Source: a bacterium
GTDB taxonomy: Bacteria > Patescibacteriota > Patescibacteriia > Patescibacteriales > JAKAJF01
Assembly (NCBI GenBank): GCA_021788015.1
Contig: JAJYLD010000001.1
Location: forward strand, 273,581-337,580
Length of the DNA: 64,000 nucleotides
Reading direction: 5' to 3'
The notes beneath the pieces are model-generated. The model was not told the DNA's origin and searched no databases. It saw only the letters and a list, made by a program, of their open reading frames with translations. Below, piece after piece: positions 48,959 to 52,814 of this stretch. Position 1 is the first letter of the stretch, and each line of letters begins with the position of its first letter. Both the position numbers and the translations under genes were made by a program.

Positions 48959-49491
48959 AAAATTTCATCCCCGCAAGTTTTATCCACAAACATTTCGGGA
49001 TGAAATTGTACGGCATAAATAGGCCTTGTCTTATGTTTTATGGCTTCGATTCCATCTTTAGAACGAGCAAGCGCCAAAAGGTTCTCCGCGGCCTCTTTAA
49101 CCACCCAACGATGACTTTCAAAAACTTGAAAATTAGGTAAATTGGAAAATATTTTTTCTTGCTTGAGCACTTTAATTTCAAGAATACCTTTCTCTTTGCT
49201 GCGCATACGTTCGAGTTTAGCTCCGAATGCATTGGCTATGATCTCAAAGCCGAAACAGATCCCGAAAATTTTCGTTTTTGCATTTCTGATAAAATTTATT
49301 TCATTTTGAAGACGATTTTCATTTCCTTGTACCGAAAATTTGTGACCGCCTGAAAGAATTATGGCATCAAATTTGTTAGGATCTACCGAGTTAATCTTAG
49401 AGTATTTTATCGTCTCAAAAGGAATGTTGACCAACAGTTTTTTAAGTTGTGAAAAATATTTAGTGCCGTTGTTTATTATTAAAATTTTCAT
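48931..49491 (-). CDS. class I glutamine amidotransferase (GuaA/PabA-type stand-alone domain)
   Basis: IILSGG, the nucleophile region GICFGFEII, and YAVQFHPE. Confidence 0.8.
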   Translation of the reverse strand: MKILIINNGTKYFSQLKKLLVNIPFETIKYSKINSVDPNKFDAIILSGGHKFSVQGNENRLQNEINFIRNAKTKIFGICFGFEIIANAFGAKLERMRSKEKGILEIKVLKQEKIFSNLPNFQVFESHRWVVKEAAENLLALARSKDGIEAIKHKTRPIYAVQFHPEMFVDKTCGDEIFYNFLKFAE

Positions 49492-49915: not shown

Positions 49916-50527
49916 TTACGCAAATCTTCTTATTACACCTTTAACCACACCTTGAATCAATGGATCGGTCGCGTAAATCGGAGACATGGCCGAGTTTGCG
50001 GGCTGAAGGCGGATTCTTTTACTTTCGCGATAAAACTTTTTTAATGTCGCGTAGGCATTGTCGAGTAAAGCCACGACGATATCGCCGTTTTGCGGAGAGG
50101 GATTGCGCTCGACAATGACATAATCCCCGCTTAAAATTCCTTCCTCGATCATGGATTCGCCTTTCACTTTTAAAACATAGCTGTTTGCCGGATCGGTTAC
50201 GAAATCGGCGGGAACGGCTATCGTTTCATTGTCTTCGACCGCCTCGATAGGCTTCCCGGCGGTGATCAGACCGGCCATGGGCAGTTCGATCGCTCGCGCC
50301 CAATTTACAGCGGCGGTAACGATTTCAATCGAGCGCGCTTCGTTATGCGCCAATTTTAAAAATCCTTTCCGCTGCAGATTTCGCACATGGTCATGAATCG
50401 TGGCCGGACTGGAAAGCCTAAAATGCTCTCCGATTTCGCGATAGCTCGGGGCGTAACCGTGCCTTTTCGAGAACTCAGTTACGAAGTCCAAAATCTGTCT
50501 TTGGCGTTTTGTTAAATTGTCCCCCAT
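49916..50527 (-). CDS. lexA: LexA repressor
   Basis: wHTH LTKRQRQILDFV...YAPSYREIGE, Ala-Gly cleavage region LITAGKP, Ser in KGESM and Lys in TLKKF. Met-27 of the track ORF is taken as the start. Confidence 0.85.
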   Translation of the reverse strand: MGDNLTKRQRQILDFVTEFSKRHGYAPSYREIGEHFRLSSPATIHDHVRNLQRKGFLKLAHNEARSIEIVTAAVNWARAIELPMAGLITAGKPIEAVEDNETIAVPADFVTDPANSYVLKVKGESMIEEGILSGDYVIVERNPSPQNGDIVVALLDNAYATLKKFYRESKRIRLQPANSAMSPIYATDPLIQGVVKGVIRRFA

Positions 50528-50593
50528 ACATTTTGTACCCTCTTTATTAAAGAGGGTAGGGTGATTTTCCTTCCGCTCTTTAAGATGAGTTTT

Positions 50594-50604
50594 AGTTATC
50601 CACA
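50594..50604. promoter_or_regulatory. AGTTATCCACA 11-mer (contains perfect DnaA-box 9-mer), copy 1
   Basis: Identical to the 11-mer at 52196-52206; both lie upstream of minus-strand operons. Confidence 0.4.
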
Positions 50605-50620
50605 CTTATATAATTAGTAT

Positions 50621-50640
50621 AACCGAACAAAAAACGAAAG
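50621..50640. promoter_or_regulatory. candidate LexA operator, copy 1
   Basis: The plus strand reads AACCGAACAAAAAACGAAAG (GAAC-N7-GAAA). It is 17/20 identical to 52103-52122. Confidence 0.5.
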
Positions 50641-50649
50641 TCAAATTAA

Positions 50650-50678
50650 TTGACTTTCCTTTTTTAATTTCCTAAAAT
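50650..50678 (+). promoter_or_regulatory. promoter divergent from lexA
   Basis: TTGACT (50650-50655), 17 nt, TAAAAT (50673-50678). Confidence 0.6.
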
Positions 50679-50703
50679 TAAGAAAAAAGGAGGTGGTGTT
50701 TTT

Positions 50704-51047
50704 TTGAAAAAAATCGATTTTCTCGGTAAGATTTTTCCATTCTTTTAAGGACAAAAGGAAATTGCACGCTGGGGGATCTTAGGGGCGGTATCCAGTCTGC
50801 GGGGCACAATAAGAGCTTTATCCTTCTTAAGGACAAGGGCAAAGGAACTTTTTTAATTTATGTATTTTGGCTCGACAAGAGCAAGAACAGAATACAACGA
50901 AAGAAACTTAAGGAATTTAAATCCGAAAGAGTGATGATTTCTTCGCCATGGAAAACAAAAGGTTACTTGGGATTAAAGGCAACTCTGGTTTATCCTGAAG
51001 GGCCGTATGATATTTTTCTTAAGTGGCCGAAATCGATTTTGAAATAA
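50704..51047 (+). pseudogene. frameshifted ~114-codon gene of unknown function divergent from lexA
   Basis: TTG start behind AAGGAGGTGG. Frame A stops at 50746-48 after MKKIDFLGKIFPFF. The -1 frame continues LRTKGNCTLGDLRGG...FLKWPKSILK* to 51047. The shift lies in a T4 run (50743-50746). Confidence 0.4.
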
Positions 51048-51118
51048 GCTCTTCGCGAGCCTTTTTATTTTTTAAAAAAGAGAGCGATTTTATTCGCTCT
51101 TTAAGTTTTGCTTTGCGT

Positions 51119-51478
51119 TTATTTTTTTTCGGGAATGGCGGAGCCGGTCTTTATTACCACCCCCATATCCTGGTCGACGGATATGTAGGCGTTAGGATCG
51201 TTCACTTTAATCCCGATTTCTTTGAAAGTGATCTCCACCCCAGCCTTGTTGCCGCCGTCGCAGCAGGTTTTTGTCTCTTTAACTGCCTGCTGGGCAATCC
51301 GGCGGATTTTCACATCGCCGGCGTGGCCGCCGAGGATATTGATTTTGTCCAGGTCGGCGTTATAGATAACCCACCCTTTCGGGACCTTTCCTTCGTAAGC
51401 CCTACAAATTATTGTCTCTCCCGCCAGTAACTTCTCTGCGTCCGAACTCTTGATAATAATCTTCAGCTTGTCCGACAT
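51119..51478 (-). CDS. hypothetical protein C of three-gene operon (119 aa)
   Basis: GAAGGAGG lies 5 nt upstream of ATG 51478 (MSDKLKIIIKSS...). It follows gene B after an 11-nt gap. Confidence 0.55.
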   Translation of the reverse strand: MSDKLKIIIKSSDAEKLLAGETIICRAYEGKVPKGWVIYNADLDKINILGGHAGDVKIRRIAQQAVKETKTCCDGGNKAGVEITFKEIGIKVNDPNAYISVDQDMGVVIKTGSAIPEKK

Positions 51479-51489
51479 TTGTTCCTCCT

Positions 51490-51819
51490 TCAAAATAGAT
51501 TTTGCTGATTAGTATGATTTTTTTCTCTTTCCCTTTTCCTTCTGGCAATCGCCTTTTTTGTTTTTCCCGGATGCATGAGTTGATTACAATGGACAGAACC
51601 GGGCAGGATTCTAATCTCGCATCTTTCGCCGTAGCCCTTTCCGAAATGCTGGTCAAGTCTCGCTCTCATAAGTTCTTTAGCCTTGGCTATCTTCGCCGCC
51701 TCGATCACAGGCGTTGCTCCACTTACTGAGATCTGTATGAATCTAAATTTATCTCCCGTGAGGATTTGGCCAACCGGATTTTTTACTTCATATTTTGCGT
51801 TTAATTTATATTCTTCCAA
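51490..51819 (-). CDS. hypothetical protein B (109 aa, TTG start, basic C-terminal tail)
   Basis: AGGGGGA lies upstream of the TTG. The stop of gene A overlaps this SD. The tail is KTKKAIARRKREREK. Confidence 0.5.
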   Translation of the reverse strand: MEEYKLNAKYEVKNPVGQILTGDKFRFIQISVSGATPVIEAAKIAKAKELMRARLDQHFGKGYGERCEIRILPGSVHCNQLMHPGKTKKAIARRKREREKNHTNQQNLF

Positions 51820-51828
51820 AACATCCCC

Positions 51829-52080
51829 CTATTTTATCAATTTTAATCCGTGCCGCCGCTTTTCCAGTTCTTCAAGAACCCAATCCCTAAAAGGGGGATC
51901 GACGCATTTGCTTTCCTCTACCAGTTCGCGATAAGTGTATTTACTCTTGGCGCCATCCCAAAGTTCCCGCATTATTTTTATAAGAGCCCCACCTATTTGT
52001 TGCATGCGTTTTTCCTTTCTTGTGAAATGATCAATTTGATATTTAAAACTACCATAATTTTTTTTCTTAGTCAATGCCAT
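51829..52080 (-). CDS. hypothetical protein A (83 aa, possible HTH)
   Basis: The MALTKKKNYGSFKYQ... start is preferred because the 20-nt operator-like motif lies 23 nt upstream. YTYRELVEES resembles an HTH turn. Confidence 0.5.
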   Translation of the reverse strand: MALTKKKNYGSFKYQIDHFTRKEKRMQQIGGALIKIMRELWDGAKSKYTYRELVEESKCVDPPFRDWVLEELEKRRHGLKLIK

Positions 52081-52102
52081 AAAATAATTTTCCAAAATTG
52101 TA

Positions 52103-52122
52103 AACCGAACAAATTTCGAAAG
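52103..52122. promoter_or_regulatory. candidate LexA operator, copy 2
   Basis: The plus strand reads AACCGAACAAATTTCGAAAG. Confidence 0.5.
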
Positions 52123-52174
52123 ACTAAAATTAGAAAGAAATTCGCGCATTTTTCTTTACCGCCTTGCAAAAATT

Positions 52175-52183
52175 TGGTATAAT
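52175..52183 (+). promoter_or_regulatory. extended -10 promoter (TGGTATAAT)
   Basis: TGnTATAAT match. It drives the micro-ORF unit that ends at the 52315-52350 terminator. Confidence 0.5.
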
Positions 52184-52195
52184 TAAATTAGATAA

Positions 52196-52206
52196 AGTTA
52201 TCCACA
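52196..52206. promoter_or_regulatory. AGTTATCCACA 11-mer, copy 2
   Basis: Identical to 50594-50604. Confidence 0.4.
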
Positions 52207-52249
52207 GGTAAAAATTCCTCACCTTTAAGTAGGAATATAATGCAAAAAG

Positions 52250-52294
52250 ATGGCTGCAAAAAAAGCAAAAAAAGCAAAGAAAAAGAAGAAATAG
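52250..52294 (+). CDS. possible 14-aa polylysine micro-ORF (MAAKKAKKAKKKKK); alternative 21-codon frame from 52240
   Basis: It lies between the extended -10 promoter and a strong terminator. Coding status is unproven. Confidence 0.2.
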   Translation: MAAKKAKKAKKKKK

Positions 52295-52314
52295 TCTTTT
52301 TCTGATAAACTCAC

Positions 52315-52350
52315 AAAAAGAATAGTTGTTAATGCTATTCTTTTTGTTTT
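52315..52350 (+). terminator. rho-independent terminator
   Basis: AAAAAGAATAG ttgttaatg CTATTCTTTTT gtttt. Confidence 0.8.
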
Positions 52351-52529: not shown

Positions 52530-52600
52530 TCGGGGATCGTCTAATGGTAGGACAGCGGGTTTTGGTCCCGTCAATTGGGGTTCGAATCCCTATCCCCGAG
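52530..52600 (+). tRNA. tRNA-Gln (anticodon TTG)
   Basis: Acceptor TCGGGGA/TCCCCGA, anticodon arm GCGGG-TTTTGGT-CCCGT, T arm TGGGG-TTCGAAT-CCCTA. Confidence 0.9.
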
Positions 52601-52814
52601 CAAACAACGGAATCGTTCGAGAGACCGAACTGCGTCAAAAACGCCGCAAAAAAACACTTTTTTATAAAGTGTTTTTTTGTCTTAAAAACAAAGTTTTTAA
52701 TCATTAATATACCCTGCCCCAGGGAACGCAGGGTGTATTGATGATTAAAATTCCTATATTTTAAAACGGAAAATTATGTTATACTTAAATATATAACTTA
52801 AAACTTAAAAAATT

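Follow-up and report, generated by a model that had tools for sequence, protein, structure and literature searches.

The stretch of DNA analysed here, 64,000 nucleotides (nt) of the Patescibacteria contig JAJYLD010000001.1 and referred to as the window, contains the gene lexA on its minus strand and, upstream of lexA in the same orientation, an operon of three tightly spaced genes that we call orphan genes. The regions upstream of lexA and of the operon share a 20-nt repeat, predicted to be a LexA operator, as well as a perfect DnaA box. The features on which the argument is built are listed by position (aa, amino acids).

49916..50527, minus strand: lexA coding sequence, 203 aa, winged helix-turn-helix DNA-binding domain and S24 self-cleaving domain
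50596..50604, plus strand: DnaA box 1, perfect TTATCCACA, which reads TGTGGATAA on the lexA sense strand
50616..50644, minus strand: lexA promoter from a promoter scan, TTGACT-17-TATACT, -35 at 50644-50639 and -10 at 50621-50616
50621..50640, minus strand: predicted LexA operator 1, CTTTCGTTTTTTGTTCGGTT, arms TTTCG (50639-50635) and GTTCG (50628-50624), period 11 bp
51119..51478, minus strand: orphan gene 3, 119 aa, strong AAGGAGGA ribosome-binding site, codon log-odds 0.31
51490..51819, minus strand: orphan gene 2, 109 aa, TTG start after GGGGGA, codon log-odds 0.23
51829..52080, minus strand: orphan gene 1, 83 aa, codon log-odds 0.18
52097..52126, minus strand: predicted operon promoter, TAGTCT-18-TACAAT, read by alignment with the lexA promoter
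52103..52122, minus strand: predicted LexA operator 2, CTTTCGAAATTTGTTCGGTT, both arms as in operator 1, 23.0 bits
52198..52206, plus strand: DnaA box 2, perfect TTATCCACA, extended form AGTTATCCACAG

The product of lexA matches the family model TIGR00498 with E = 7.5e-55 and 185.7 bits (equivalog cutoff 110.95) and contains the domains PF01726 (1.1e-19, residues 4-65) and PF00717 (2.8e-29, residues 84-188). Ala90-Gly91, Ser125 and Lys163 are present as read from the sequence (ITA90-G91KP, GES125M, TLK163K), and we take them to be equivalent to A84-G85, S119 and K156 of LexA from Escherichia coli. In the alignment with LexA from Thermotoga maritima (3K2Z, 1.5e-35) cleavage site and catalytic dyad correspond. 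The nearest relatives of the protein, with 75-81% identity, come from Falkowbacteria, Parcubacteria and other Patescibacteria. The regulatory regions are identical in independent assemblies of the same contig (ENA, Logan data).

The original prediction had proposed a pair of 20-mers with 17 identical positions upstream of lexA and of the operon, and both are indeed present: they are the reverse complements of AACCGAACAAAAAACGAAAG (plus strand, 50621-50640) and AACCGAACAAATTTCGAAAG (plus strand, 52103-52122), which differ only in three central spacer bases. The gap between the second 20-mer and the ATG of the first operon gene at 52080, given earlier as 23 nt, is 22 nt on recounting. The form GAAC-N7-GAAA, in which both sites had been described on the plus strand, is uninformative by itself, with 11 matches in the window vs 5.9 expected (not significant), and therefore any significance must come from the full motif. 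For this motif we built a weight matrix from 38 distinct sites in orthologous lexA promoters of other genomes, i.e. with the window excluded, and the consensus of this matrix is exactly the lexA 20-mer of the window. The matrix assigns 30.9 bits to the lexA site and 23.0 bits to the site of the orphan operon, the next best site within the 64 kb reaches 13.7 bits and the best site among 30 shuffles 14.1 bits, so that chance is an unlikely source of the full direct-repeat motif. The three bases separating operators 1 and 2 sit in those columns where the matrix carries least information, and in both operators the arms, (G/T)TTCG, point in the same direction and are 11 bp apart, matching the consensus CTTTCGTTTTTTGTTCGGTT. 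A dispersed repeat, which had been named earlier as an explanation to be looked at, was rejected, as the 20-mer has just two copies in the window even at three mismatches, with no extended similarity around them.

The comparative evidence comes from 80 lexA loci, one per species genome, that encode LexA proteins 60-81% identical to LexA of the window. In 74 of these 80 loci a box of at least 15 bits lies upstream of lexA, typically in the arrangement TTGAC-box-TATAAT, and in about 70 the box fills the spacer between -35 and -10, the common form of the promoter being TTGAC(T/G)TTCG(G/T)NTTTTGTTCG(G/T)NTATAAT. Operator 1 has the same anatomy, i.e. it extends from the last two bases of the -35 element to the first base of the -10 element and thus fills the spacer of the lexA promoter, in the format TTTCG-N6-GTTCG, which equals TTTC-N7-GTTC. 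Since promoter spacers are not normally conserved, the repeat in the lexA spacer may be regarded as a protein-binding site.

The box recurs at a second class of genes. In two of the related loci (L024 and L029) a second promoter with the box precedes a gene of 81 aa and the gene of a Y-family polymerase (PF00817, 1.8e-36), and in a further set of 80 metagenome loci that encode relatives of this polymerase, 26 distinct loci have the operon preceded by a TTGAC-box-TATAAT promoter whose box scores 19.7-30.7 bits. The 160 loci together (874 kb) contain 123 matches of at least 20 bits, of which 82 precede lexA and 34 the polymerase operon. Strong matches are hence located at lexA or the dinB operon in 116 of 123 cases, and four of the other seven face metK where this gene is divergent from lexA. 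Because strong matches are nearly confined to the two gene classes that are most widely LexA-controlled, we read the repeat as that of LexA. The anatomy of the sites, the extent of their conservation and how specifically the motif marks SOS promoters are all direct observations. The original prediction had asked whether other expected SOS promoters and the lexA promoters of relatives would carry the motif. The lexA promoters of relatives do, and among the other SOS promoters those of dinB operons in relatives; its reading of the 20-mer as a direct-repeat LexA operator agrees with the matrix derived from relatives only, with the conservation of the lexA spacer and with the dinB operons.

That the spacer repeat is instead the operator of a regulator other than LexA appears most improbable. 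The assignment to LexA is made from sequence, which leaves room for such a regulator, but strong matches occur almost wholly at lexA and at translesion polymerase operons, GTTC-N7-GTTC is a known format of LexA boxes (PMC4951493), and a direct-repeat LexA motif is described for Patescibacteria (PMC7739468). Judged by these comparisons, the shared 20-mer is a LexA operator of the published direct-repeat kind.

Several relatives show variations of this arrangement. In the Uhrbacteria-like lexA loci (L053, L056, L059, L070, L071, L082) the operator is a triple GTTCT repeat with an 11-bp period, e.g. GTTCTGCTTTTGTTCTAATTTTGTTCTATATG, and the ATG of lexA directly follows the last GTTCT repeat, suggesting a leaderless mRNA and a variant half-site. 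In four loci (L073, L074, L075, L079) metK, confirmed by Pfam for L073, is divergent from lexA and LexA-type repeats are found on both strands of the intergenic region between the two genes, so metK may be a clade-specific SOS member there. Extra genes can also be located between the LexA-box promoter and lexA. In L024, L039, L046 and L054 this is the gene of a 23S rRNA-intervening-sequence protein (PF05635, 4.6e-37, tested for L024) and in L009 that of an IS200-like transposase (PF01797, 1.5e-28); genes inserted in this way would share an SOS-controlled transcript with lexA. The conserved gene of about 81 aa (MLEKLDDPIEVL...) that precedes the Y-family polymerase is found in L024 (884-1126), L029 and most dinB loci (L083-L160) and shows a weak match to DUF6504 (E = 0.013).

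The second operator of the window belongs to the orphan operon. The codon log-odds of its three open reading frames (ORFs), 0.18-0.31, compare with 0.17-0.45 in trusted genes of the window, and all other frames are strongly negative; owing to this host-like codon usage the ORFs can be considered real genes. Public annotation gives orphan gene 1 a start that would result in a protein of 106 aa. We rejected this start, as the extension of 23 codons has a log-odds value of -0.15 and begins upstream of the promoter; orphan gene 1 therefore starts at 52080, downstream of the box. Searches for homologues returned nothing but the query itself, both for orphan genes 1 and 3, each in its own word-index search of 5.8 billion proteins, and for orphan gene 2 when 1.84 billion representatives were searched exhaustively with phmmer, and none of the three proteins has a match in Pfam, NCBIfam, PHROGs, PADLOC or the PDB sequences. 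AlphaFold2 models calculated without an alignment have a predicted local distance difference test (pLDDT) score of 42 for gene 3 and of 60 for gene 1, the latter being all helical. With these low-confidence models, for which we claim no fold, Foldseek found nothing under E = 4.8 in the PDB. None of the three proteins contains a hydrophobic segment.

The surroundings of lexA are variable. Among its neighbours in the window, bacA, a 74-aa gene, tRNA-Gln, and the genes of a GATase and DHFR do not recur near lexA in relatives, the sole recurring neighbour being a zincin-like gene downstream of lexA, and synteny did not demonstrate that the orphan operon is an insertion. At the 3' end of the operon lies the following element.

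51079..51102, no strand assigned: two-way terminator-like hairpin

Could operator 2 be a chance match or a relic, e.g. the remnant of a duplicated lexA promoter, with the orphan genes outside LexA control? We consider this improbable. In its favour, the promoter of the operon is weak and was missed at the threshold of the scan, and with no counterpart of the operon in relatives operator 2 lacks comparative support. Its 23.0 bits, however, have to be seen against the shuffle maximum of 14.1 bits, and only about 0.015 such sites are expected per window. Both arms are intact, the three changes fall into the least informative columns, and the site lies between a -35 and a -10 element, 22 nt before the first gene, just as the boxes at lexA and the dinB operons lie in promoter spacers. 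Moreover, no extended similarity between the two operator regions points to a recent duplication. The score also lies within the range of the dinB-operon boxes. On this basis we predict that LexA represses the three orphan genes and that DNA damage induces them; the operon would probably be a lineage-specific addition to the SOS regulon that is new and confined to this organism. The proposal that lexA and an adjoining operon of unknown function share a LexA operator thus stands, with 30.9 and 23.0 bits and with no homologues found for the operon. The accompanying statement that all members of the regulon apart from lexA are of unknown function holds for the window, but not for relatives, where the regulon includes a translesion polymerase.

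The other element common to the two regions is the DnaA box. The window contains exactly two copies of the 11-mer AGTTATCCACA (50594-50604 and 52196-52206), a number that does not rise if one mismatch is allowed. Each copy, as claimed earlier, contains the perfect DnaA 9-mer. The 9-mer TTATCCACA has three copies in the window, the third of which (48980) lies inside a coding region while the other two are intergenic, i.e. the only two intergenic perfect DnaA boxes of the window are those beside its only two LexA boxes. DnaA box 1 is located 11 nt past the -10 element, corresponding to about +5 to +13 of the predicted lexA transcript.

In relatives the box accompanies lexA. A LexA-type box scoring at least 15 bits is present in 74 lexA promoters; in 62 of them a perfect TTATCCACA is no more than 90 bp away from that box, and 69 of the 74 have a DnaA box if one mismatch is tolerated. 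A subset of 67 loci (504 kb) contains 72 perfect boxes, 54 of which lie inside the 9.4 kb around the lexA boxes, a density about 160 times that of the background. None of the 26 dinB-operon promoters contains a perfect 9-mer within 90 bp of its LexA box (0/26 vs 62/74, Fisher p = 4e-15), and the DnaA box is therefore specific to lexA promoters and not a part of the LexA operator. The earlier joining of a DnaA box to both regions is hence borne out in so far as the box is conserved at lexA, but it does not extend to the regulon as a whole.

The position of the box differs between clades. In the Falkowbacteria-like clade it reads TGTGGATAA on the sense strand and lies 32-33 or 41-46 bp after the first TTCG, corresponding to about +5 to +23 of the transcript (the site of the window has an offset of +34). 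Members of the clade of Komeilibacteria, Nomurabacteria and Uhrbacteria-like bacteria have it, mostly in the opposite orientation, about 10 bp ahead of the -35 element and 21-25 bp ahead of the first TTCG. The sequence flanking the box is not conserved, and the 9-mer stays perfect as position and orientation shift from clade to clade. Because the box flips and moves from a transcribed to an untranscribed position, it may be regarded as a protein site at the DNA level and not as an RNA element. The extended consensus common to the window and its relatives is A(C/G)TTATCCACA(G), and this explains how the two copies of the window come to share 11 bases without any duplication. The offsets between DnaA box and LexA box fall into classes (-24, -45, -56, -77, +33 and +43/44 in L003-L082) that are about 11 bp apart; a period of 11 bp fits them best (R = 0.74, the loci being related and several periods having been tried). 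The LexA repeat has the same period, and the offsets therefore hint that DnaA and LexA might bind to the same face of the helix. By its sequence conservation, the DnaA box is a constituent of the lexA promoter in most relatives.

The 11-mer might, however, have no regulatory role and reflect chance, titration of DnaA or the remnant of an origin, which we regard as rather unlikely. In favour of this explanation, each region has one DnaA box, the 64 kb show no enrichment of 9-mers when up to one mismatch is allowed (17 vs 13 expected), the dinB promoters have the LexA box but no DnaA box, box 2 is 86 bp away from the operator of the operon, and chance also produces perfect 9-mers within coding sequence, as in sigma-factor genes of relatives and at 48980. 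Chance is nevertheless excluded for the lexA site: 62 of 74 orthologous promoters have the box, with fixed offsets and at a density far above background. The flanks are not conserved, and position and orientation switch between clades. An origin remnant is countered by the lack of a box cluster and of a skew switch. For box 2, chance or another target is possible.

We also considered the region as a replication origin (oriC) and rejected this candidate, as there is one box per site, no cluster of boxes and no GC-skew switch at 50-52 kb. The coding 9-mers are probably coincidences of coding that inflate the background counts: the copy at 48980-48988, in the GATase gene of the window, encodes Val-Asp-Lys, and TTATCCACA or TGTGGATAA in sigma-factor genes of relatives (L043, L047, L060, L064) encodes Ile-Val-Asp-Lys. 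Our literature search, whose coverage left out many subscription papers, found no paper that ties a DnaA box to the lexA promoter or to Patescibacteria.

DnaA box 2 is surrounded by elements of its own on the plus strand.

52155..52183, plus strand: promoter from the promoter scan, TTTACC-17-TATAAT with TG extension (TGnTATAAT)
52241..52306, plus strand: small Lys-rich ORF, 21 codons, MQKDGCKKSKKSKEKEEIVFF; alternative frame MAAKKAKKAKKKKK
52313..52347, plus strand: terminator-like hairpin with a T run, RNA fold z = -3.5

A short transcript from this promoter would hold the Lys-rich ORF followed by the hairpin, and DnaA box 2 would be located at about +9 to +17 of this transcript. In a search of 49.8-53.1 kb for RNA families tRNA-Gln alone reached the gathering threshold, and the short transcript has no Rfam family. 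This tRNA-Gln gene, at 52530-52601, follows the element at 52241-52347 and has its own promoter.

There is roughly an even chance that box 2 serves this promoter and its short transcript and not the orphan operon, its nearness to operator 2 being incidental. The position of the box within the transcript resembles that at lexA (+5 to +13) and at other promoters of relatives (L015, L026), the transcript ends in its own terminator-like hairpin, and LexA box and DnaA box are paired in none of the 26 dinB-operon promoters. On the other hand, no function is recognised for the transcript, a DnaA box does lie near a few LexA-box promoters that do not belong to lexA (e.g. L039:54), and it is precisely the sole two intergenic perfect boxes of the 64 kb that adjoin the two LexA boxes. 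As for the target of box 2, the promoter on the opposite strand seems slightly likelier than the orphan operon, with considerable uncertainty.

Further elements were found around the lexA promoter.

50536..50558, minus strand: lexA leader hairpin, perfect 10-bp, TACCCTCTTT-AAT-AAAGAGGGTA, ending 8 nt short of the ATG
50650..50678, plus strand: divergent promoter from the promoter scan, TTGACT-17-TAAAAT, back to back with the lexA -35 element
50706..51057, plus strand: 14-codon ORF with a strong AGGAGG, followed in a different frame by about 104 open codons that lack a start

The 3' arm of the leader hairpin holds GAGGG, the sole Shine-Dalgarno-like sequence there, and the hairpin could thus mask translation initiation; the leaders of relatives are long and variable and contain other palindromes. 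The -35 elements of lexA and of the divergent promoter together form a palindrome (50636-50658). The spacer of the divergent promoter, TTCCTTTTTTAATTTCC, resembles a decayed LexA repeat and is not among the top matrix matches. The stretch at 50706-51057 has no family match and its codon usage is not gene-like; it is probably the frameshifted pseudogene of a divergent gene that may once have been LexA-controlled. In four relatives (L036, L044, L041, L051) divergent LexA-box promoters adjoin lexA.

Taken together, we regard it as likely, from the sequences of the window and its relatives, that lexA and the orphan operon carry LexA operators and that a DnaA box modulates lexA. We propose that lexA is transcribed from its sigma-70-type promoter and that LexA dimers bound to the spacer repeat would exclude RNA polymerase, so that LexA would repress its own gene. 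Upon DNA damage activated RecA would trigger the self-cleavage of LexA, and lexA as well as the orphan operon would be derepressed. Operator 2, which is placed equivalently in a weaker promoter, would bring the orphan genes under the control of LexA. DnaA bound to the leader-proximal box would modulate the transcription of lexA, repression being the likeliest outcome for a site at +5 to +13; this direction is suggested by analogy with the joint action of DnaA and LexA at uvrB, recN and dinJ in E. coli, and in the clade with the box centred near -49 the effect of DnaA could have the other sign. The set-point of the SOS response would thereby be coupled to the state of the replication initiator. 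Binding by LexA and by DnaA, the direction of regulation and damage inducibility are thus proposed on grounds of sequence. The most far-reaching part of this proposal, i.e. that DnaA of Patescibacteria directly controls lexA through one consensus box and that damage and initiation status jointly set the SOS threshold, we consider evenly poised. In this genome, damage and replication signals may also reach the orphan operon.

Several observations weigh against these proposals. The related loci share ancestry, and our counts consequently overstate the number of evolutionary events. Neither recA, uvr nor dinB is found among the 20 annotated large ORFs of the window, and dnaA was not seen among its annotated large ORFs either. 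The orphan operon is missing from all 80 related lexA loci, which precludes a comparative check of its regulation, and its promoter, with 8 of 12 consensus matches and under the scan threshold, is weaker than that of lexA. Each site has a single DnaA box, whereas many DnaA-regulated promoters carry several. Finally, DnaA box 2 begins 86 bp ahead of the TTCG in operator 2, and this offset of -86 is outside all offset classes of lexA promoters and out of the 11-bp phase.

The LexA part of our findings is ordinary in that it confirms a published box; its use lies in the fact that the box alone selects SOS promoters in uncultivated genomes with high specificity. The orphan operon, if LexA-controlled, would illustrate that SOS regulons keep recruiting lineage-specific genes, and its operator offers an entry point to the function of orphan genes in uncultivable organisms. 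The group in which most members have a DnaA box at lexA is very large; if DnaA binds to this box, regulator-poor bacteria with reduced genomes would have wired replication initiation into the master switch of the damage response.

How does this system compare with known ones? The SOS network of Patescibacteria reportedly treated by Sanchez-Osuna, Barbe and Erill (Environ Microbiol 2017; 19:3465) is said to comprise a small regulon around lexA and the translesion polymerase operon. Kilic et al. 2020 refer to the Patescibacteria SOS study as one example of LexA having evolved a direct-repeat motif (PMC7739468). The Patescibacteria network resembles the one described here in belonging to the same superphylum and in the autoregulation of lexA via a direct-repeat operator. 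The difference lies in the orphan genes, which were found only in this organism and therefore are not part of any conserved regulon. The direct-repeat LexA box of Patescibacteria is known from the literature, and the orphan operon as a putative member of the regulon is new.

The SOS box of Alphaproteobacteria has the format GTTC-N7-GTTC (PMC4951493; PMC8565304). As the original prediction had recognised, the likeness is close, as both boxes are direct tetranucleotide repeats with an 11-bp period and many relatives of the window have exactly GTTC-N7-GTTC, e.g. CGTTCGGTTTTTGTTCGGTA. Nevertheless, the phylum is another one, the window and its nearest relatives have TTTC as their first arm, and the conserved unit is longer, (G/T)TTCG(G/T). 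Independent origins of direct-repeat LexA motifs are described in the literature (PMC7739468). With the Gram-positive Cheo box, GAAC-N4-GTTC, the operators share the GTTCG half-site, as proposed earlier, and the position over the promoter. The Cheo box, however, is an inverted repeat with a 4-bp spacer, whereas the arms in the window are direct and 11 bp apart with a 7-bp gap between the tetranucleotides, and the palindrome CGAAC-N4-GTTCG is absent at both sites of the window.

With regard to the orphan genes, the closest parallel is the yneA operon of Bacillus subtilis, an example of lineage-specific SOS genes located by lexA; such genes mostly encode membrane-anchored division inhibitors and are divergent from lexA. 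The orphan operon is similar in that it consists of small, poorly conserved genes beside lexA with the same predicted operator, but it differs in that its proteins have no hydrophobic segment and its genes lie in tandem upstream of lexA.

For the DnaA box the parallel is found in E. coli, where DnaA and LexA co-repress uvrB, recN and dinJ (Wurihan et al. 2018, PMC6015884; reviewed in PMC8203912). There, too, a DnaA box adjoins or overlaps a LexA operator within one promoter region. The E. coli targets, however, are downstream SOS genes with several weak DnaA boxes, whereas here it is lexA itself with one perfect box, and, unlike in E. coli, the box at lexA is conserved across the superphylum and absent from dinB promoters. 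If this coupling is real, it would represent a simpler and more central link between replication and the SOS response than the overlap of DnaA and LexA sites at uvrB of E. coli.

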